A stretch of 43,655 nucleotides of DNA, from assembly GCA_029093185.1 (NCBI GenBank), contig GCA_029093185.1_4348.1. One strand, written 5' to 3'. Under the pieces are notes generated by a model. That model was not told the DNA's origin and searched no databases. It saw only the letters and a list, made by a program, of their open reading frames with translations. Below, piece by piece: positions 2,461-29,192 of this stretch (position 1 is its first letter; each line of letters starts with the position of its first letter). The translations under genes and the position numbers were made by a program. Source of the stretch: a phage.

Positions 2461-3087
2461 TTAGCGGCGGCGACGTTCGCGGCGCGGTGCTTCATCTTCT
2501 TCGTCGTCTTCCAGGTCATTGACGCTCGCAGCGACTTTAGAACCGCCGAACGCTTTGCCTTCGCCAACGTATTTAATCGCCAGCAGGTTAACGCCGAGGA
2601 CTTTGTATTTCTGGCTGAACCAGATTTCAACGCTTACGTTAGCTAAGCATCCGCTGTAAACCTGTTCACCTTCAATCTGTTCGCCGTCTACGTTGAAGTC
2701 CTGCTCTACCTGAGTCTCACCTTTTTTAGAGGTTACAATCAGCGGCTGTTTCTGTGCCTTCGCTTTGAAGTAGAAGCCTTCCGGGAAGTCTTCAAACGGA
2801 TTGTCGCGCTCGGCAATGTCTTTAATCGCGCATTTATCCATGTGCTTACCTTCACCGTAGTTGGACTTCATCCATTTCTCGGCAGCGGCTGCGCCTAACG
2901 CTTCTTCAACTACAGCGTAAACGGTGTCGTAGAGTGCATCGATTTGAGCATGGTCAGACGGCAGGATAATAGTCGCGCTGTACTGGCCTTTAGTGATTGA
3001 GCCATCATCGTTTTCACGGTCTTTTTCGCGTTCGAATACGTTAACCCAAGCAGTGTTTACTTTACGCAGATTCAGTTTAATACCCAT
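2461..3087 (-). CDS. DUF2815-like phage ssDNA-binding protein
   Basis: 208 aa; acidic tail DLEDDEEDE then RRERRRR; sits between a Cas4-like nuclease and PolA, the position this family usually occupies. Confidence 0.5.
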   Translation of the reverse strand: MGIKLNLRKVNTAWVNVFEREKDRENDDGSITKGQYSATIILPSDHAQIDALYDTVYAVVEEALGAAAAEKWMKSNYGEGKHMDKCAIKDIAERDNPFEDFPEGFYFKAKAQKQPLIVTSKKGETQVEQDFNVDGEQIEGEQVYSGCLANVSVEIWFSQKYKVLGVNLLAIKYVGEGKAFGGSKVAASVNDLEDDEEDEAPRRERRRR

Positions 3088-3146: not shown

Positions 3147-3175
3147 ACTATAATAGCTAACTATTCAGGTGTCAA
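3147..3175 (-). promoter_or_regulatory. Sigma70-type promoter with embedded operator palindrome
   Basis: Minus strand TTGACA (rc of 3170-3175), 17-nt spacer, TATAGT (rc of 3147-3152); spacer contains TAATAG-CTAA-CTATTC. Confidence 0.6.
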
Positions 3176-3364
3176 ATAAAATTTCGCAATACGGACTATG
3201 TTCTCGAAATCATTCATATCAACGGGTTCGAATTCATCCTCCACATGGTTGTATCGCACCATCGTGCCGTTCAGGAACGTAAACGATTCCGAATGGATAT
3301 AACCGCCCCAGCGCCATATCATCACAAAATCTTTATCTGTGGGCATTTCATTTACTTGAATCAT
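3161..3364 (-). CDS. Hypothetical protein
   Basis: 67-aa ORF; its ATG overlaps the upstream stop (ATGA) and is preceded by GAGGAGGA. Confidence 0.5.
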   Translation of the reverse strand: MIQVNEMPTDKDFVMIWRWGGYIHSESFTFLNGTMVRYNHVEDEFEPVDMNDFENIVRIAKFYLTPE

Positions 3365-4602
3365 TCTAAATCCTCCTCTGTTACCCTATTCCACTCAGGA
3401 CGTTTGTCGTCTGCCGTTGCAACACATGGTGCGCCTGGCTTACGGGTAATGAAGTCTTTCAGTTCTTCTTCCGGTATGACTTTAACCGCTTCGGTTGGCG
3501 TCATGAGCACTTGCTTCATTAGCGCTATGCCATACTTGCCAGCCACTTTCTCTGCGTCTTTCCACGCACGATTGCCCGGGCGGCCCTCAACCAGCTTGTA
3601 CCCCGGCACTTTCTTACCGGAATGCAACGCGGTGGCCATCGCTTTCTCAACCTTGTCGATGTGCTGGCGCAACAACGGCAACTTCTCATATTCAGCTACG
3701 AGTTGCTCCGGCGTAAGTTCCAGCGCAAAGTCGTCCTCCAGTTCTTCCGCCAGTACAGAGTTAACGGTTTTTGTACGCGCGGCACACTGTTCAGAGAACC
3801 GACACCACTGACAACCATCTACAGACGGCTTGAAATCAGATGCTTTCAGGTTCTTCTTACCGCGGAAATACGCATCAAGCGCCAACAGTGCACGTTTCTT
3901 GGCAAACTTAGCGAACAGTTCCAGACCTTCAACCGAGATGTCCCACTCCGACGCACCGCCAGCGTACGGCTGGAAGATGACCAGGCGCACTACTGTGATG
4001 TTATAACGTCTCTTGAGTCGGCGATAAACACCGAGAGCGTAAAGCATAAGCTGCTTGTTTTCTTTCGCTTCGACGCGATGCCGCCCGGTTTTCAGGTCGC
4101 CGATAATGAGCATGTGCTCGTCGGTGTTTGCCAGTTCCTGTACAGCAACGAGGTCAGCGGTTCCGAACGTCTCAACGCCTTCATACCCCGGATGCAATAC
4201 CTCAGTAAGATTGACACGCATTTCCAGCTTGGCGTAAGTCGCTACGTCTATAATCGCTTTGCAGTAGTCGGTGTACTTGCGCACCTGCTCAATCATGTCC
4301 GCCGTAATCAGTACCGCGCCTTTCATCGGGCTGATTAGCGCCTTAATCTGACCTTTACCCTCATCCAGCACGTAAGCACCGACTTCACGTTCTAACGGCA
4401 GCGCAGTGCCACGGATATGAGCGTTGAGATGGACCTCGGCTATGGTGTGACACGCGGTCCCCGTAACAGCAGCTTTACCGGACGTGTTAGGAATATCTTT
4501 TTCACAGGCCAGTGATGCACTGCACGCCAGCCACTTTTTGGCGCCAGACGGCGACAGTAAGGCGTGCACATCGTTATTGCCACCGCGTTCTTTTAGAATC
4601 AT
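3361..4602 (-). CDS. Cas4/RecB-like PD-(D/E)xK exonuclease (DUF2800-like) with probable 4Fe-4S cysteines
   Basis: 413 aa; RecB-family motifs IIGDLKTG and QLMLYALG; N-terminal Cys pair (WLACSASLAC) plus C-terminal CQWCRFSEQC; C-terminus ends VTEEDLE. Confidence 0.7.
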   Translation of the reverse strand: MILKERGGNNDVHALLSPSGAKKWLACSASLACEKDIPNTSGKAAVTGTACHTIAEVHLNAHIRGTALPLEREVGAYVLDEGKGQIKALISPMKGAVLITADMIEQVRKYTDYCKAIIDVATYAKLEMRVNLTEVLHPGYEGVETFGTADLVAVQELANTDEHMLIIGDLKTGRHRVEAKENKQLMLYALGVYRRLKRRYNITVVRLVIFQPYAGGASEWDISVEGLELFAKFAKKRALLALDAYFRGKKNLKASDFKPSVDGCQWCRFSEQCAARTKTVNSVLAEELEDDFALELTPEQLVAEYEKLPLLRQHIDKVEKAMATALHSGKKVPGYKLVEGRPGNRAWKDAEKVAGKYGIALMKQVLMTPTEAVKVIPEEELKDFITRKPGAPCVATADDKRPEWNRVTEEDLE

Positions 4603-4961
4603 CGTAAACTCTCCAAATACAAGTTTAATGCCTGTAGCTGTTCTTCTGTGGGAATGAAAGAATCATCGCGACGTAAGTCGCTTAACTGTTGCAGCATTCC
4701 TGCGAACTTACGTCTTGCGTCAACAGCGACAATGTGATGCTTTTCACTTTTATATATTAAGGTTTTCGGGTAATCCTCAATCCTGCCAGACGATTTATTC
4801 ACGCGGAGTGCGCGATCTTCATGCGCAATGTGTATGTACTTTTTGCCGTTTTGTAGCACAGTAGCTACACCGCTGTTCTTTCTGCGGTCGCCGACGGTGT
4901 AAACTTTGTCGCCGCTGCGCAAATTAAGCCACCATTTATCAGTCATACCCTGTTCTCCCAC
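4599..4961 (-). CDS. Hypothetical protein
   Basis: 120-aa ORF, 4-bp overlap with the downstream gene; no recognisable motif. Confidence 0.5.
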   Translation of the reverse strand: MGEQGMTDKWWLNLRSGDKVYTVGDRRKNSGVATVLQNGKKYIHIAHEDRALRVNKSSGRIEDYPKTLIYKSEKHHIVAVDARRKFAGMLQQLSDLRRDDSFIPTEEQLQALNLYLESLR

Positions 4962-5215
4962 TGGTCAATTAAATGCCGTGTCTTGTGGTCGCAATGTAAG
5001 GCCCATCCATACATCGACTCGAAGACATAAAAGTCAGGCTTGGCGAAAGTTGTGCGCTTAATCTGTGACACGTGACGGCCTATATCTTTAGGCCGTGGTA
5101 CTTTTCCTAAGTACGCCATCTCTTCCATCTGGTGCGCACCGGACGGAGCACGCAATAGCCATAGCGCCTCTGTGTTATCCCGCCTGTCGACGGCTCGGTA
5201 GAGTTGGTAAATCAT
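4943..5215 (-). CDS. Hypothetical protein
   Basis: 90-aa ORF in the operon; contains HCDHKTRH, a possible metal-binding patch. Confidence 0.45.
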   Translation of the reverse strand: MIYQLYRAVDRRDNTEALWLLRAPSGAHQMEEMAYLGKVPRPKDIGRHVSQIKRTTFAKPDFYVFESMYGWALHCDHKTRHLIDQWENRV

Positions 5216-5227
5216 AATTCCGACCCT

Positions 5228-5251
5228 CAGTTAAAGCGGCCCGAAGGCCGC
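5228..5251 (-). terminator. Intra-operon hairpin, possible attenuator/terminator
   Basis: GCGGCC / GGCCGC stem with 4-nt loop (5236-5251); T-rich tract follows on the minus strand. Confidence 0.35.
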
Positions 5252-5258
5252 GAGATAG

Positions 5259-5759
5259 TTATTCTTCTTCGAAATACTTGTTCTTGATTGCTGTCAGGCG
5301 TTCCAGGTATTCAGCCAGGTCTTCGTCTTTAATCGCTGCAATCTTCATTTTCTTACCTGTGAACTCTTCCAGCAGTTCATCAGAATCATCGCACGCGGCA
5401 TCGCTCGGACCTTCGTTAATTGCATCGTCGATAGCCTGAATCTGGTCGCGCAGAGACTTATAGTCTACTTCTTCTTTCTCTTCTTCCGGCTCTGGCGTCG
5501 TTTCCTCTACTTTAGCTTTACGCGGCTTGCGTTTTGGCTTCTCTTCCTCCGCCGGTTTAGTGTCAACTACGTCTTCACCTTCAACCGGGATTTCTTTTGT
5601 TGCTTCTTCAGCGCACTCAGCTACCGCTTCTTTGGTGTACGATACCGTCTCTACTTCCAGCGGCGTGGCAACCTGAACAACTTGTTTCGCACTGTTCGCG
5701 GCAATCAGTTCGTGCGCAACTACGAAACGTTCCAGTAATACTAAGAATTTCTCTAACAT
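5259..5759 (-). CDS. Highly acidic low-complexity protein
   Basis: 166 aa; central Glu/Lys/Pro-rich tract (EEEKPKRKPRKAKVEETTPEPEEEKEE) and acidic C-terminus. Confidence 0.55.
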   Translation of the reverse strand: MLEKFLVLLERFVVAHELIAANSAKQVVQVATPLEVETVSYTKEAVAECAEEATKEIPVEGEDVVDTKPAEEEKPKRKPRKAKVEETTPEPEEEKEEVDYKSLRDQIQAIDDAINEGPSDAACDDSDELLEEFTGKKMKIAAIKDEDLAEYLERLTAIKNKYFEEE

Positions 5760-5783
5760 TATTTATTCTCCTGTTTATTTGGG

Positions 5784-6011
5784 CTACTCGCCGTCGCCTT
5801 CTGTAAGGCTATCGTCTATTAATTCAAATTTACCGTTTGGGTGTTGAATAGCTTCTTGCCCGCAATGGTCGCAGACAACAAGTTTATCGAACCCATCAAA
5901 CTCATCCCCTACTACGCAAGAAAGTACAAATTTATGTTTTGTGCACACTTCTTGCGGAGCGCCGAAAATTGCTCGAAAACCTTTAGCTATGGCCCCAGTG
6001 ATTGTGTTCAT
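5784..6011 (-). CDS. Small zinc-ribbon protein
   Basis: 75 aa with CTKHK...C and CDHC cysteine/histidine pairs. Confidence 0.5.
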   Translation of the reverse strand: MNTITGAIAKGFRAIFGAPQEVCTKHKFVLSCVVGDEFDGFDKLVVCDHCGQEAIQHPNGKFELIDDSLTEGDGE

Positions 6012-6039
6012 ATCTGCCCCTCTCGTTTGGTATGGGCTA

Positions 6040-6068
6040 ACTATAATAGCGAACTATTCACATGTCAA
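6040..6068 (-). promoter_or_regulatory. Sigma70-type promoter with embedded operator palindrome
   Basis: Minus strand TTGACA (rc of 6063-6068), 17 nt, TATAGT (rc of 6040-6045); contains TAATAG-CGAA-CTATTC. A degenerate second copy (TAATAT-GGTA-CTATTC) lies at 6088-6107 just upstream of the XRE gene. Confidence 0.6.
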
Positions 6069-6132
6069 TGGGCTTTTCTAAAATAATTAATATGGTACTA
6101 TTCACATATCAACTGACTAAGGAGTAATTGAC

Positions 6133-6348
6133 ATGCAACCATCTGAACTAGGCATCCGTGTAGAACAACGCCGCAAAGAACTCGGCATCTCCCAGCGCCG
6201 TTTGGCGGCCCTGACCGGCGTTTCCCAGGGCGCGATTAACCAACTGGCACTTGGAGTAACTCAGGACGTCCGCCCGGCAACGCTGTTCAAACTGGCGGAA
6301 GTTCTGGAAGTAGACGCCAAGTGGCTGGCGTTAGGTGAAGGGGCTTAA
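6133..6348 (+). CDS. XRE-family (Cro/CI-like) helix-turn-helix regulator
   Basis: 71 aa; HTH signature ISQRRLAALTGVSQGAINQLALG; AAGGAG Shine-Dalgarno 9 nt upstream. Confidence 0.8.
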   Translation: MQPSELGIRVEQRRKELGISQRRLAALTGVSQGAINQLALGVTQDVRPATLFKLAEVLEVDAKWLALGEGA

Positions 6349-6364
6349 AGCCCCTTTCTTTTTA
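6338..6364 (+). terminator. Rho-independent terminator of the XRE gene
   Basis: Hairpin GGGGC-TTAAA-GCCCC whose loop contains the XRE stop codon, followed by TTTCTTTTT. Confidence 0.55.
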
Positions 6365-6365
6365 C

Positions 6366-8624
6366 CTATTCCAAATCCTCCTCTGTCACCACCAGCATCT
6401 CATTTGGTTCGTATAGTGTCTTCGGCCTTAATCTATCCCCTATTCTTTCGGGTATACGATATGTTCTCGGTACTACTTCGCCGTTAGCATCGCAACCAAG
6501 CATTAGTTCTCCATCTTTCAACATTTTATCAAGATGGGTGTTAGTCACAGAGAAGTCACCGGAACGAGCCACTATCTGCTGCTGAGTAAAACCGCGACCT
6601 GTGTCATCTGACTGTTGCAGGTCTTCCAGTGCCGAAAGTATTGACTCCTTCCTTACTTCATCCCTGCCGCGTTTAACTTCTTCCTTTACTTTTTGCTTAC
6701 CTTCTTTCGTCAACCCTTCTTCCCGCTCTTTCTCCTCGTCAGTTTTGAACGGCTCGAAACCCCACGGCATCAACACAAGCGCCTTGTGTGGTTCAGGCAG
6801 GTCCAGGTTTACGATTGTGCCGTATTCCTCTGTGCTACCCAGGAACTCAACCGCTCGGTATTCTTTAGGCGGCGGCGCTTCACGGAACTGTACCGACTCC
6901 AGCACCATGCCAACCGTCTTCTGCTGAGGCCCGTGCTTGAATTTCGAGTGATATACGTTTATCTGACGGTCGGTTGCACGTTCGATTGTCAGTTCCACGT
7001 CAACACCCGCATACAGCGCCCCACTGCCGCGTGCTTTCTTTCCACCCTTCGGCGTATGGTGGACAACGCCTACTGCGGCTTTAGTTGCATCGCGTACTTC
7101 TTTCAGAATGGCGATAACTTTACCCATGCCGATTGCTGTTGATGAACTGTTCTCGTCGAACTTATCAATCGTCAGGGCCAGCGTCTGGTTAAGGGTGTCG
7201 AAGGCAACCATGCCAATAGGTTCATCCCCTGCGGTTTCGCGCATCCTGCGGATTAGAGCTGGAATTTTTTTATCACCATGCGTAGCGAGTATTTCGCCCA
7301 TATCGATGACATGTACATAATCTTTACCTTCCTCGCCATATTTAGCCGCGAGTGCATCAATACGTGTTCGTGTAGCTGCACCACCCTCGCCGTCAATATA
7401 GAAATGGTGGCAACGTTGGGTGTCAGCCCCCGCAAACCGGTACCCGGCGGCGCTCAGGTACATCATCCCCAGCGTATAGAATGATTTGTACGTGCCGGAT
7501 TCCCCGACAATATCCCAGATACAATCCGACGGCATGTACCCCTCAACGACGAAATCAGCCTTTACCGGTTCTGGTAACTCGTCCTCCTCTGAGTCCTCGT
7601 CGTCTTCCAGGTCGTCGAGGCTGCATGAGACAGATTCACGCGCCCCCCAACCGATGGCCTCTGCGACTTCACTGAACGGCAGCCCGGTCGCATCGCACGC
7701 GTACTTCCACACCTCTTTCGGTGACAGGCCTTCTGTCGCCGTAATGTCTGTGTCGTGAATCATGGTTACGTTTGGCGCTTCATACCCCTCGCGCGGGAAG
7801 CACAGCAGGAAGTCGTCCGGGCGCGGTGTCGGGTCGCTGTAGTTTTCGGCATGTTCCGGTGTGGCTGGCATCTTAAGGCCGCGCGGCGTCATGACGCCGC
7901 CGTACTCAAACGCCAGTGCTTCAAACGCGTCTGTAAACGCGGTGCGCAGTTCTTCCGGTATCTGGTAATCCGATGCGCTGCTAACGTCAACGGCTGGGAT
8001 GCCTTCCAGTAACTCGTTCGGGTCGATCAGGTCGTTGCGGCGCGACCAGATAACGGTAGCGCCGACCGGCGGCAGGTACATCGGCTGCGACAGAGTGAAC
8101 CCGCTGCGGTCCGCACCCATGCCTTTGAAGAAGTGCTCCAGCAACCCATGACGAACACGGATGATGTCACCACCCTCCACCGGACGGGCCAGTGGCATTA
8201 CGACGCGAAAGCGCGGTGACTCATCAGTATGTGATGCCGTGGTATAGAGGCACATGGCCCAGCGGCTGCGCTTAACCAGGCGCACCGCTTCCTGATACTC
8301 TTCCGGTGTTGTGCTGTCGAAATCCAGATAGGCCAGCGACGATTTGCTTACAGACGCATCGCAGCGGTAGAAAAAACCTTTACGCGCTTGCTTAAAGTCT
8401 CCAGTTTCCGGGTCTTTTACGGTGCTGTGCGTTGAGTCGCACGCGGCGGTGATATAACCGGGCGCGGTCTTAGGGTTAATCCCGTCGCGAACGGCATCGA
8501 GCGGCTGGATTAACTCTTTCAGGTCGTCCAGTGTTGCCGTGTGTGCGGTTCTGACATTTATATCCTTTTTTCCCGCCCGCGCGTTGCGGCGTGACCACGA
8601 GTAGGATAAAATTACATCGGACAT
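6366..8624 (-). CDS. DNA primase/helicase (RecA-like AAA_25-type ATPase with N-terminal primase-like domain)
   Basis: 752 aa; Walker A GESGTYKS; VGVVHHTPKGG motif typical of RepA/AAA_25 helicases; C-terminus ends VVTEEDLE. Confidence 0.65.
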   Translation of the reverse strand: MSDVILSYSWSRRNARAGKKDINVRTAHTATLDDLKELIQPLDAVRDGINPKTAPGYITAACDSTHSTVKDPETGDFKQARKGFFYRCDASVSKSSLAYLDFDSTTPEEYQEAVRLVKRSRWAMCLYTTASHTDESPRFRVVMPLARPVEGGDIIRVRHGLLEHFFKGMGADRSGFTLSQPMYLPPVGATVIWSRRNDLIDPNELLEGIPAVDVSSASDYQIPEELRTAFTDAFEALAFEYGGVMTPRGLKMPATPEHAENYSDPTPRPDDFLLCFPREGYEAPNVTMIHDTDITATEGLSPKEVWKYACDATGLPFSEVAEAIGWGARESVSCSLDDLEDDEDSEEDELPEPVKADFVVEGYMPSDCIWDIVGESGTYKSFYTLGMMYLSAAGYRFAGADTQRCHHFYIDGEGGAATRTRIDALAAKYGEEGKDYVHVIDMGEILATHGDKKIPALIRRMRETAGDEPIGMVAFDTLNQTLALTIDKFDENSSSTAIGMGKVIAILKEVRDATKAAVGVVHHTPKGGKKARGSGALYAGVDVELTIERATDRQINVYHSKFKHGPQQKTVGMVLESVQFREAPPPKEYRAVEFLGSTEEYGTIVNLDLPEPHKALVLMPWGFEPFKTDEEKEREEGLTKEGKQKVKEEVKRGRDEVRKESILSALEDLQQSDDTGRGFTQQQIVARSGDFSVTNTHLDKMLKDGELMLGCDANGEVVPRTYRIPERIGDRLRPKTLYEPNEMLVVTEEDLE

Positions 8625-8681
8625 GTTGTATTTCCTTCAGCAAGTAATTTGGCCTCGGCGCTCTAACGCTGGGGCTTTCTT

Positions 8682-8915
8682 TTATTCCAGGTCTTCTAAA
8701 GTGGCTGTCACCCCACGAACTTCGGCAACAGCACTATATCTCCCGCCAACATTTTTCACGACACCAGATTTAACCAGCACCTTCAACGACCCTTCAATGA
8801 TGGCGGAACTATAGTACCTAAAATAACTGCGGCGCAAGTCCATAACGCTGCACGACCCTTTTTTACGTGTTACCGAAACAACCGCCGTAAATACGCGTGA
8901 CTGGAACTCGGTCAT
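8682..8915 (-). CDS. Hypothetical replication-associated protein
   Basis: 77 aa; C-terminus ends TLEDLE, matching the tails of the nuclease and primase-helicase. Confidence 0.5.
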   Translation of the reverse strand: MTEFQSRVFTAVVSVTRKKGSCSVMDLRRSYFRYYSSAIIEGSLKVLVKSGVVKNVGGRYSAVAEVRGVTATLEDLE

Positions 8916-9106
8916 TTTACATTCTCCTTAATCCACGCTTCTACTTTCTCCGGGTCGAACGTACCAGGCTGCCGGCGGCCCATAATACGGATACAACAAT
9001 CCGGGAACTTCCCACTCTTTAACCAGTTATTCAGCGTGCGACGAGTAACCCCGATACGCTCAGCTACCTCATTCTGTGTCATTCTCAAACCCTCATTATC
9101 AGTCAA
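8912..9106 (-). CDS. AlpA/excisionase-like HTH DNA-binding protein
   Basis: 64 aa; LRMTQNEVAERIGVTRRTLNNWLKSGKFP; first gene of the minus-strand operon. Confidence 0.6.
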   Translation of the reverse strand: MTDNEGLRMTQNEVAERIGVTRRTLNNWLKSGKFPDCCIRIMGRRQPGTFDPEKVEAWIKENVK

Positions 9107-9522
9107 CGAAACTTAGTATACATTGCGAATAATGGGAAATCAAACATAATCGCACCTATTGACATTATGAAAATCTTCGTTTAAGGTGCTTTTGTATCTT
9201 AGTTACTTTGATTCCTGTTCACCTTGTAAAACCGCTTAAAACGCAGCTGCGCGCAGCGCAAGCAAAGTGTTAAGCGAAAGTTTACTGAACATAAGAATTA
9301 TCGTAACTTTCCTTCCTAAGTATCTCCGGTTGCCCTGGGCAAGCTCTATTCTCATCGGCAGCATATCTCTTAAGTATCTGATTTTCTTAATGTGCCGTAG
9401 ATTCGCAACCGTAAAAATGTAACGATTATTGGGCAGGCTTAAGCCTGCCCTTTAGCTACCAAGTAATAAGAATAAAGGCACAACCCTCCCCGAAGAATCA
9501 CAACGGCAACGTAACTATTCTC

Positions 9523-9556
9523 TTGCACACCCCAACATAATAGGTTACTATTCACT
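9523..9556 (+). promoter_or_regulatory. Early promoter (TTGCAC-17-TACTAT) with operator palindrome
   Basis: TTGCAC 9523-9528, 17-nt spacer, TACTAT 9546-9551; TAATAG-GTTA-CTATTC overlaps the -10. Confidence 0.55.
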
Positions 9557-9585
9557 TATCGAAACGAGACATAAGGAATTTAGAA

Positions 9586-9804
9586 ATGAACAAAGCGACC
9601 GCAAGCGTAGTTTCCGCAATCAAACAAGTTTACGGCATCGATATTTCAGAGCGCGTAATTATCGGGAACAAACGCAACTTCTTTACGTTCGGCACCGACG
9701 GTATGGATGGAAACGATTTTAACAACGTACAACGTTTCGCTATCGGTAAGGGGCTTCGTAATGAGCCTGCGGGTTACAAGAAATTCGCTATCTACTTTAA
9801 ATAA
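9586..9804 (+). CDS. Hypothetical early protein
   Basis: 72-aa ORF, first gene after the divergent control region; AAGGAA Shine-Dalgarno. Confidence 0.55.
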   Translation: MNKATASVVSAIKQVYGIDISERVIIGNKRNFFTFGTDGMDGNDFNNVQRFAIGKGLRNEPAGYKKFAIYFK

Positions 9805-27835: not shown

Positions 27836-28065
27836 TACTCATCAATGTTACTCCTGTACTCCCGTAACTTTTCCAGACTTTCAATTGCTTCCGCTAAGTC
27901 GGTTCCGGTGTCCTTGTGTCCACGTAAACCCATGCACAATAGCTTCTTCAATGCGTGCTGTAACGCCGGGTCGCGGATGTCGAAAGCGCGGAGCACATCA
28001 TAAACGTCTACTGTCATAGTGCTGCCGTGAGTATTTGTCATTGTGCGGTTGTATTTTGAAGTCAT
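27835..28065 (-). CDS. Hypothetical small protein (third gene of the antisense moron operon)
   Basis: 76 aa; ATGA overlap with the phosphoesterase gene. Confidence 0.55.
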   Translation of the reverse strand: MTSKYNRTMTNTHGSTMTVDVYDVLRAFDIRDPALQHALKKLLCMGLRGHKDTGTDLAEAIESLEKLREYRSNIDE

Positions 28066-29192
28066 CCCAGCATCTCCGGTGAAATAGTTAAACGTGCGAC
28101 CTCGCCATATTCGGCGCTATAAGTAATTACATTTGCACTGCGGCCTGACATCCACCCGCCGCGGGAGGCATAGGCGTCTTTAGCCGCTAAGGTGCGGTGT
28201 TGCTCAACAATCATGTTACGGCTTTCTACAATCTTCTGGTGGTGCAGGTGGCCTACGTGGGCGTAGCTATAGACACTCTCACCGAACGCTTTGCGGAATT
28301 TGGCAATCATAACCGGTTCGATAGCATCGAATCGCGCCTTATGCCCGTGGTGAAAGAACAACGTCGTTTTTCCGTGTTGCACCATCTTGTAAACATCCGG
28401 CGACGTATCGACAATCACTCGGCTGTCGTTCGAATATAAAACTGTGAACATTTCAGCCAGCCATACAGAGCCTACAGGGTCATGGTTCCCCTGTACGATA
28501 AGCAAGCGAACATTTTTATGTTTAACCAGTGCCATATCTACAACACAGCGTACCATACGAATCATGTAGCGGACGAGTTTCTGGTAGCGAGTGTCTGCGT
28601 CCAACACGTGACGCGACTCAGGTGTAACGGCATCCAGACTATCGAAGTGCGCGAAATCACCCAGCAGGTTAATAACTCCTGTTCCTGCATCCGGTGCTTT
28701 CTGAAACGCCGCGTCGAACCAACGAGAGAACAGGTCTTCCGCAATCTTTATATCCCAGTCGTCGCCGCTCTCGTCGGCCCAGGCAAGCATACCGAGATGG
28801 AAATCAGATACCGTGTAAAGATTGAGTAGCTTGTCGTCGCGTTTGGCTCGAGTCGCTTTAGCCGGCGCAACTGGCGTAATCTCTGACTTCATGCCTTCAA
28901 TCACGGCTTTCATCAACTCGACCTGACGTTCAGCGTCGGTGTCTGTCTTAACCCATTGCAACTTAGTATTGCCGAACTCGTCTACCAGAGACGACGTTCC
29001 TTTAATCTTGTAGCCGTCTGGCACAAGGTGGCTAACGTCACGCCCGTGGCCTACACCTTTCTTAGCCAGCTTCGCTTTACGGATACGAATAACTCGGTCT
29101 GAGATGCCGTATTTACGGGCGATGTCTACATTCTTCATCCCGGCGTTCAATTCTTCCTGTAACTGTTCGTCGGTTATTTTCTTCTGGGCCAT
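28062..29192 (-). CDS. HTH-fused calcineurin-like metallophosphoesterase
   Basis: 376 aa; N-terminal HTH (VDIARKYGISDRVIRIRKAKL); phosphoesterase motifs VSDFHLG (DxH), LGDFAHFD (GDxxD), VQGNHDP (GNHD), HHGH and GHLHH. Confidence 0.7.
   Translation of the reverse strand: MAQKKITDEQLQEELNAGMKNVDIARKYGISDRVIRIRKAKLAKKGVGHGRDVSHLVPDGYKIKGTSSLVDEFGNTKLQWVKTDTDAERQVELMKAVIEGMKSEITPVAPAKATRAKRDDKLLNLYTVSDFHLGMLAWADESGDDWDIKIAEDLFSRWFDAAFQKAPDAGTGVINLLGDFAHFDSLDAVTPESRHVLDADTRYQKLVRYMIRMVRCVVDMALVKHKNVRLLIVQGNHDPVGSVWLAEMFTVLYSNDSRVIVDTSPDVYKMVQHGKTTLFFHHGHKARFDAIEPVMIAKFRKAFGESVYSYAHVGHLHHQKIVESRNMIVEQHRTLAAKDAYASRGGWMSGRSANVITYSAEYGEVARLTISPEMLG

Follow-up and report, generated by a model that had tools for sequence, protein, structure and literature searches.

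In bacteriophage T7, the C-terminal acidic tails on the helicase-primase gp4 and on gp2.5, the SSB (single-stranded DNA-binding protein), bind, and compete for, basic patches of gp5/thioredoxin, one at the front of the polymerase and the other in its thioredoxin-binding domain (bioRxiv 10.64898/2026.05.20.726333). In crystals of T7 gp2.5, Enc34 ORF6 and two other DUF2815 proteins, the acidic C-terminus is placed in the β-sheet groove of a neighbouring molecule (PMC5686142). A duf2800-gp2.5-polA gene module has already been described in phages (PMC8093625), and no interaction has been reported for it in the literature searched. Here, we analyzed a phage sequence of 43,655 nucleotides (GenBank assembly GCA_029093185.1, contig GCA_029093185.1_4348.1; hereafter the window) that encodes such a module. 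Three of its proteins, a DUF2800 nuclease, a helicase-primase and a protein of 77 amino acids, have a common acidic ending, and further copies are located inside the helicase-primase and the gp2.5-like SSB (Table 1). The motif is real, selected at the level of the peptide, co-varying within genomes and independent of the host.

The nuclease ends in …NRVTEEDLE, the helicase-primase in …LVVTEEDLE and the 77-amino-acid protein in …VTATLEDLE, and a re-check of the sequence showed that the initial annotation had given these three endings correctly. In all three, the motif is placed at the extreme C-terminus, directly before the stop codon, and four of the six residues in TEEDLE are acidic. The open reading frames ending in DLE, in all six frames, are exactly these three, and EDLE is found only three times when all six frames are translated, each time at one of these C-termini. 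DLE followed by a stop codon was observed three times, compared to an expectation of 0.42. For 70 greedily chosen genes, with k-mers taken from inside each protein as the null, the probability that at least three share a C-terminal 3-mer was 0.003, and for a 4-mer it was about 1e-4, a value that equals the added pseudocount (0 of 20,000 null draws). The broader pattern [ST]x[DEN]DLE gave five six-frame matches, all within four replication proteins (shuffle mean 0.08); it was derived post hoc from the same sequences, and its informative part is the absence of other matches. The two additional matches are the internal copies in the helicase-primase linker and the SSB, both of which run into further acidic residues. 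The motif is not peculiar to three proteins or to this phage. The shared ending is real and not a product of chance.

The proteins that carry the motif have unrelated folds. The nuclease matches DUF2800 (PF10926, E = 5e-69) and PDDEXK_1 (PF12705, E = 2e-8), and the Pfam model stops at amino acid 402, so that the tail is located outside it. Residues D150, D169, K171, Q184, Y188 and C27, C264 (at least 90%, nearly invariant), C267 and C273 are conserved in 58 diverse homologs. The catalytic D…D-x-K residues and the four cysteines for an iron-sulfur cluster are present, as in the Cas4/AddB-type PD-(D/E)XK class, to which the protein belongs. Its AlphaFold2 model, with a predicted local distance difference test (pLDDT) score of 93, matches the folds of AdnA, MGME1, Dna2, AddB, Exo5 and Cas4, and more weakly those of RecE and lambda Exo. 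According to a 2026 preprint, the homolog in the Dhillonvirus Bas14 is an active nuclease that triggers a type IX retron. The 77-amino-acid protein is a winged-helix domain (mean pLDDT 90) with a tail at pLDDT 67-77, and its best fold matches are generic winged-helix proteins such as T4 MotA, IdeR, LexA and the C-terminal domain of RPA32. We also considered whether it is a paralog of the winged-helix-like C-terminal domain of the helicase-primase, which was rejected (BLASTP E = 0.35, hhalign probability 0.75%). The SSB matches PF10991 with E = 4.2e-16 and 59.5 bits (cut-off 26), and is hence gp2.5-like (DUF2815/Enc34_ssDNA-bd).

The initial annotation had called for a comparison with homologs, and the motif turned out to be kept, not lost, in nearly all close relatives. 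Homolog searches with the nuclease and the helicase-primase returned almost only close relatives (at least 82% identity). The nuclease ending is kept, with minor variants, in all 120 close cluster representatives, and [TS]E[EDG]DLE is kept in 117 of the 120 representatives of the helicase-primase. The last approximately 25 amino acids of the latter, IxDxxxPKxxYEPNExxxxTExDLE, are invariant, with identities in the adjoining domain down to 36-40%. The 77-amino-acid protein was found in only part of the genus, and 28 of the 31 clusters of its relatives have the ending [LS]E[DE]LE; the ending in Jerseyvirus is TPEDLE. In other relatives, the same slot is occupied by a protein of 91-106 amino acids that ends in …ISRDLE or …ISHDLE, or by a third protein without the DLE ending, and a 70-amino-acid protein encoded elsewhere in the early region ends in …KKEDLE.

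Conservation over longer distances was examined by tblastn against phage genomes and with a 50% representative library. In Jerseyvirus, the tails are …VTEEDL, …TTEGDLE and …ATPEDLE. The motif is also kept at about 30-40% identity of the helicase domain, in Cornellvirus (nuclease …ATDSDLDD, helicase-primase …SEEDDLEN), the Edwardsiella phage eiAU (…KDDDLVD and …ATNSDLED) and Dhillonvirus (…ATDEDLSNE and …ATDDDLKD), and in Cornellvirus and eiAU the helicase-primase gene is located on the strand opposite to that of the nuclease gene. The library contains 11,557 DUF2800 relatives, and tail composition was determined for the 136 full-length representatives among the best 150. Most of these end in a conserved …DKRPA… segment and, after it, an acidic stretch that contains a hydrophobic anchor. 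The tails contain 4.3 acidic residues per 15, compared to 2.2 in internal 15-mers; the dipeptide [DE]F is found in 51% of the tails versus 10% of the internal 15-mers, and DL in 46% versus 12%. The motif represents the local dialect of a tail that is acidic and anchored by a hydrophobic residue; most DUF2800 nucleases in the sample carry such a tail, as do the gp2.5-like SSBs sampled.

Other lineages have other dialects, and at least five distinct ones each show matching tails within a genome. Chivirus ER24 has …FDDEDEV in the primase, …WDDEDDDEV in the nuclease, …DWEDEV in the SSB and …VWDDEE in a superfamily 2 (SF2) helicase, and two of its small proteins end in …DDDEV and …EEDDV; the published reverse primer for Enc34 ORF6 implies the ending …WDEDEV, which fits this dialect (PMC5686142). 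In Burkholderia phage AH2, of the same family, the tails are …FDDL, …ECDL, …ADGL and …DDEL, so that four replication proteins in the Casjensviridae jointly change their final residue from Val (…DEV, ER24) to Leu (…D(D/E/G)L, AH2). Serratia phage Scapp has …EEFEELE in the primase and …SDFENLE in the nuclease, a Staphylococcus phage …EDDFDKL in the nuclease and …EDDFDELDTDDEDFL in the SSB, Fusobacterium phage phiPaco [KR]AEDEF[SD]AV in both the nuclease and the SSB, APSE-2 NDFDDVT and EEFDDLS, and Streptococcus phage Javan29 …DDGDDFLD in the primase and …DDDDDFLN in the SSB. A permutation test was performed on 17-18 lineages with the DUF2800–gp2.5-like–PolA module, with Jerseyvirus omitted because it is close to this genome. 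Tails were more alike within than between genomes for nuclease and primase (p = 0.0005-0.0007), for nuclease and SSB (p = 0.0014) and, with a score anchored at the C-terminus, for primase and SSB (p = 0.008). The PolA controls showed no likeness within genomes to the tails of the nuclease, primase or SSB (p = 0.26-0.94). The tails differ between phages of one host: the three genera compared for Salmonella carry EDLE (Jerseyvirus), DLDD/DLEN (Cornellvirus) and DDEV (Chivirus), and among E. coli phages, Kagunavirus has TEEDLE versus ATDxDLxx in Dhillonvirus. The collection searched holds about 1,470 records of phages with this module, with hosts in the Proteobacteria, Firmicutes, Bacteroidota, Actinobacteria and Fusobacteria.

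The reading that we favor, with moderate confidence and on the analogy with T7, is that (S/T)x(D/E)DLE serves as a lineage-specific short linear docking motif for a shared phage partner. In such a model, the tail would be displayed on the nuclease, on the helicase-primase (C-terminus and linker), on the winged-helix protein and on the SSB, ahead of its basic end, and the copies would occupy a single basic docking surface of a partner encoded by the phage, either in turn or in competition. This would bring unwinding and priming, resection or flap removal, coating of single-stranded DNA and a DNA-bound accessory factor together at one machine. What is inferred here is that the proteins bind physically, which partner they bind, and how this affects replication. 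Since the phages of one host differ in their tails and the proteins of one genome match, the receptor is probably encoded by the phage and co-evolves with the tails, rather than being a host protease, clamp or SSB partner. PolA would be the leading candidate, although still a doubtful one; it is favored because of the T7 precedent and because it is the sole core replication protein that never carries the tail. It ends in …MYRYAK in this genome and in …Y(R/F)Y(A/R)K-type sequences in the enterobacterial and most other lineages, and an acidic tail on PolA was absent in every lineage examined. The groove for single-stranded DNA in the SSB may be a second candidate or a second site, which we regard as slightly less probable still. 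A more far-reaching proposal, which we put forward tentatively, is that phages with this module use a private and rapidly co-evolving C-terminal address code, in which each visitor to the replisome wears the tail of its lineage; besides the recombination nuclease, the primase/helicase and the SSB, which may all be carriers, the SF2 helicase may belong to them, and so may small proteins of an accessory or moron-like kind.

The likeness to T7 drawn in the initial annotation was apt, in that the SSB belongs to the same structural family as gp2.5 (PF10991; PMC5686142) and the tails co-vary within genomes across many lineages. The likeness is partial for the acidic peptides with a hydrophobic anchor on the helicase-primase and the gp2.5-type SSB of one phage: both proteins share [ST]x[DN]DLE here, but the SSB copy is non-terminal, and across lineages the likeness of the two tails depends on the score (p = 0.008 anchored at the C-terminus, p = 0.15 by a local score). 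In the T7 sequences that we checked, gp2.5 ends in …EADEDGDF and gp4 in …SNDTDF. In T7, the terminal Phe of such tails is essential. This residue is absent here: the tails end in Glu, and Leu at position -2 forms the anchor, while Phe is used by many other lineages with the module (DDFDKL, DFENLE). Lacking the terminal Phe, the motif is, strictly speaking, no T7 tail; most likely it works like one. It further differs from the T7 tails in that it is also present on the Cas4/AdnA-like nuclease and the winged-helix protein, whereas the gp6 exonuclease of T7 has no tail, in that the SSB copy is internal and followed by RRERRRR, and in the extra copy in the helicase-primase linker. Moreover, PolA in this phage is no close relative of gp5, and a thioredoxin-binding domain is not known for it. 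The order of an acidic block and an arginine-rich end (RRERRRR, PRKRRRR) in the SSB, unlike the usual acidic end of T7-type SSBs, is also seen in further lineages, and acidic and basic blocks alternate at the SSB ends of Cornellvirus, eiAU and Scapp. The lineages with such basic SSB ends are those in which the primase and nuclease tails are most alike.

Two other systems are similar in part. The C-terminal tip of bacterial SSB (…DDDIPF) is likewise a short acidic peptide with a hydrophobic anchor, placed on a flexible end, that serves as a common address; it is a hub for many genome-maintenance proteins and for phage annealing proteins, and its specificity co-evolves between partners (bioRxiv 10.1101/2020.04.14.041095). 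However, the bacterial tip has one carrier and many readers, while here there are many carriers and presumably one reader. The sequences also differ, and the SSB of this phage does not have an acidic and hydrophobic tip at its C-terminus but ends in …APRRERRRR. As for lambda Exo-Red beta and RecE-RecT, a gene for a 5'-3' resection-type nuclease is placed beside a gene for a protein that anneals or binds single-stranded DNA, and by analogy a physical coupling of nuclease and SSB would be expected. In lambda, the C-terminal domain of the annealase binds the exonuclease (PDB 6m9k), whereas the link predicted here is a nuclease peptide that is shared with the SSB and the primase.

Several observations weigh against docking, among them the missing terminal Phe and the internal position of the SSB copy ahead of RRERRRR. 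The acidic tail is absent in Vibrio phage D164, in Ralstonia phage PQ43W and in the primases of phiPaco and RcGingersnap. The likeness of the primase and SSB tails was not significant by a local score (p = 0.15), and the lineages tested share ancestry, so that the independent events are fewer than n. The DUF2800 nuclease is dispensable in Bas14 according to the preprint mentioned above, and a tail phenotype may therefore be mild. The main caveat comes from the AlphaFold2 model of the nuclease, in which the last 13 residues (amino acids 401-413; 3361-3402) have pLDDT 86-92 and form a β-bridge and a helical turn, which suggests that this tail may pack in cis and not float free. In contrast, the preprint predicts that the C-terminal region of the Bas14 homolog is disordered.

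The alternative suggested by this model is that the tails act in cis and fold back on their own proteins, for example to mimic DNA on the protein's own DNA-binding surface, an auto-inhibition of the kind seen in T7 gp2.5, or to cap the structure, in which case the likeness between the proteins would reflect a common physico-chemical solution and no shared receptor. We consider it unlikely, although it fares better than the other alternatives. It would be consistent with the ordered nuclease tail, with the binding of the T7 gp2.5 and Enc34 ORF6 tails to the grooves of oligonucleotide-binding (OB) folds, and with the fact that every carrier is a DNA-binding protein. However, a nuclease, a helicase, a winged helix and an OB fold are unlikely to need the same six residues, and joint switches between lineages, such as from Val to Leu between ER24 and AH2 and from Phe to Leu between Scapp and the Kagunaviruses, are not expected if each tail serves its own protein. 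The tail of the 77-amino-acid protein is also modeled with just moderate confidence.

A reader in the host is less probable. The tail could in that case serve as a C-terminal degron for a host protease, mark the proteins for a chaperone, or recruit a host replication protein by mimicry. Proteases and proteins that interact with SSB classically recognize C-terminal peptides. There is also a precedent in phage annealing proteins, which read the tails of host SSBs (bioRxiv 10.1101/2020.04.14.041095). The different tails in phages of the same host, both for Salmonella and for E. coli, and the matching tails within each genome argue against it. Nor is the SSB motif of the host, which ends in IPF, imitated.

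It is very improbable that the shared sequence is instead an element of the DNA or RNA, namely a junction of Shine-Dalgarno sequence and start codon (GAGGAGGATTTRGAATGA) that couples the next gene, or perhaps a short homology for swapping accessory genes at junctions, with the peptide as a by-product. The codons of the tails were compared in 41 related IMG/VR loci, three GenBank relatives and this genome. As the initial annotation had it, the DNA of the nuclease and helicase-primase tails is nearly identical, with 19 of 21 nucleotides shared, and the third tail uses other codons. It was likewise borne out that the DNA of the nuclease tail doubles as the Shine-Dalgarno sequence of the next gene: the nuclease stop codon overlaps the ATG of a 67-amino-acid protein gene (ATGA at 3361-3364; ATG at 3362-3364), and GAGGAGGA is located 7 nucleotides ahead of it. 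In the 20 loci with an ATG that overlaps the nuclease stop codon (ATGA or TAATG), the tail is invariably encoded by AC(A/G) GAG GAG GAT, including GAGGAGGA, and the genes coupled in this manner are several different ones. In the 20 loci where the stop codon is followed by a near-consensus promoter, all have GAA GAA or GAA GAC and none has the Shine-Dalgarno-like run, so that these codons track the coupled gene perfectly. However, the two synonymous versions encode the same peptide, which is retained in 16 relatives as AGT GAA GAA GAT TTR GAA TAA ahead of the promoter.

For the helicase-primase tail, Shine-Dalgarno-like codons were found in 43 of 43 loci. An accessory gene starts at an ATG that overlaps the stop codon (GAATGA) in 15 of these relatives, and at least four different genes with unrelated N-termini are involved, whereas the remaining 28 have the same GC-rich hairpin after the stop codon. 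In this genome, the TAG stop codon is followed by the hairpin with no start codon. The claim that the helicase-primase has no downstream gene to serve is thus valid for this genome but not as a general rule, and the near-identical DNA of the two tails can be attributed to Shine-Dalgarno use. The site right after the helicase-primase gene (6366-6368) is an insertion slot for accessory genes. The gene for the 77-amino-acid protein has no Shine-Dalgarno-like codons and is located 58 nucleotides from the next start codon, and its relatives have GAC and CTG/CTT throughout. In other lineages, matching tails within one genome are written with different codons; in Cornellvirus, eiAU and Dhillonvirus, the peptide is retained although its codons are unrelated, and the internal copies in the linker and the SSB precede no start codon. 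A signal in the DNA would hence account for the choice of codons and the near-identity of two tails but not for the motif itself. Because the peptide is the same whether or not its codons are Shine-Dalgarno-like, selection acts on the peptide, in line with what had been proposed. From the codon comparison, the Shine-Dalgarno sequence is a secondary overlay, achieved through codon choice where it is needed, with the peptide kept regardless. This provides a clean natural example of synonymous sites that are tuned to double as a ribosome-binding site only if required.

Finally, chance, compositional bias or shared descent, through duplication or gene conversion of a C-terminal segment, is hardly credible as an explanation: replication proteins are acid-rich and two of the tails share most of their nucleotides, but the chance probability is as low as given above, the 77-amino-acid protein has no detectable homology to the C-terminal domain of the helicase-primase, the codons differ between tails, and the motif persists between lineages that share 30-64% identity. 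Gene conversion between tails was excluded, since the tails within genomes of other lineages differ in their codons.

The window, from a Kagunavirus-like phage of E. coli, has 89-93% nucleotide identity to Kagunavirus and other members of the Guernseyvirinae, a subfamily of siphophages that infect E. coli and Salmonella, and the genes that bear the motif belong to a leftward early operon on the minus strand (Table 1).

Table 1. Positions of the early operon genes, the motif copies and associated signals in the window, listed in the order of transcription.
Feature	Position	Strand	Description
Xis-like helix-turn-helix (HTH) protein	8912-9106	minus	first in the operon in transcription order listed
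77-amino-acid protein	8682-8915	minus	after the Xis-like HTH gene; phrog_5169
TLEDLE of 77-amino-acid protein	8685-8702	minus	ACT TTA GAA GAC CTG GAA, then TAA
Helicase-primase, 752 amino acids	6366-8624	minus	AAA_25 helicase domain at amino acids 352-528
SLDDLE in helicase-primase linker	7605-7622	minus	then DDEDSEEDE
SLDDLEDDEDSEEDE, internal acidic copy in primase-helicase linker	7578-7622	minus	CTLEDLEDDDE in some relatives
TEEDLE of helicase-primase	6369-6386	minus	ACA GAG GAG GAT TTG GAA, then TAG
GC-rich hairpin (terminator)	6337-6357		between the helicase-primase stop codon and the end of a convergent HTH gene (6133-6348)
Several small proteins		minus	between the genes for the helicase-primase and the 166-amino-acid protein
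Very acidic 166-amino-acid protein	5259-5759	minus	phrog_3127; without Pfam match
DUF2800 nuclease (Cas4/AdnA-like), 413 amino acids	3361-4602	minus	
TEEDLE of nuclease	3364-3381	minus	ACA GAG GAG GAT TTA GAA, then TGA
GAGGAGGA inside nuclease tail	3371-3378	minus	Shine-Dalgarno sequence of the overlapping 67-amino-acid protein gene
67-amino-acid protein	3161-3364	minus	between the nuclease and SSB genes
gp2.5-like SSB	2461-3087	minus	PF10991 (Enc34_ssDNA-bd)
SVNDLE in SSB tail	2509-2526	minus	then DDEEDE, then APRRERRRR
SSB tail SVNDLEDDEEDE and basic end APRRERRRR	2464-2526	minus	basic end at 2464-2490
Family A DNA polymerase (PolA)	69-2303	minus	last in operon order

A near-consensus promoter (TTGACA-17-TATAGT; 3147-3175, minus strand) is located within the 3' end of the 67-amino-acid protein gene, upstream of the SSB gene. 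Relatives that lack this gene have a similar near-consensus promoter directly after the nuclease stop codon, and this gene thus has the look of an insert that separates the nuclease gene from the promoter. A 10-bp GC-rich hairpin (8651-8676) is placed in the 57-nucleotide gap between the gene for the 77-amino-acid protein and the start of the helicase-primase gene; its T-run is on the plus strand, so that it is no obvious terminator for the minus-strand operon. A search for iterons near positions 8900-9700 revealed nothing beyond short repeats in two copies, the meaning of which is doubtful. In many relatives, the match to the helicase-primase (93-97% identity) does not begin before about amino acid 315 or 354, which indicates that the N-terminal primase part is exchanged between phages, with the junction near the acidic DLEDDE linker (7578-7622; amino acids about 315-354).

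Upstream of the nuclease, several lineages have conserved the 166-amino-acid acidic protein, whose C-termini are aromatic-acidic, with …KYFEEE in Kagunavirus and Jerseyvirus, …YYEVEE in Cornellvirus, …FFEFEEE in eiAU, …YFELED in Dhillonvirus and …YEEFDE in Scapp. These endings may represent a second class of tails within the same module. In Ralstonia phage PQ43W (5758-8241, 10201-10953), the SSB-like protein ends in …GNPFAQPATAGNPFAR and the primase in …VNPFTEATS, and the non-acidic NPF motif that is common to the two proteins may reflect a tail code of another kind. In a stretch of 19 kb around the nuclease of this phage, the annotation shows no DNA polymerase. In the motif of the window, the conserved Ser/Thr precedes the Asp by three residues, in agreement with an S/T-x-x-acidic pattern. 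A 376-amino-acid protein (28062-29192, minus strand) has a weak match to calcineurin-like phosphoesterases, and its homolog in Jerseyvirus is annotated as a Ser/Thr phosphatase. That the tails are regulated by phosphorylation is conceivable, as pure speculation.

No earlier description of shared tails in these phages was found in the searchable literature, which is incomplete. To our knowledge, acidic tails are textbook material for T7, though only for its SSB and helicase-primase. The results presented here indicate the same principle in a far larger and poorly studied group of phages, which includes therapeutic isolates of Kagunavirus and Jerseyvirus and many prophages of Gram-positive bacteria, and extend it to a Cas4/AdnA-like nuclease, for which a role as retron trigger was recently reported, as well as to small proteins with no function assigned. 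If the docking reading is true, the tail would be a cheap sequence marker for the membership of uncharacterized proteins in the replisome or recombination machinery, and a handle for pull-downs and for the prediction of replisome structures. It would also be a design rule for phage engineering, as swapped replication modules would need matching tails. If the tails constitute an address code, they would predict membership in the replisome and insulate co-infecting phages from one another, and newly acquired genes would plug into the machine by gaining a tail.

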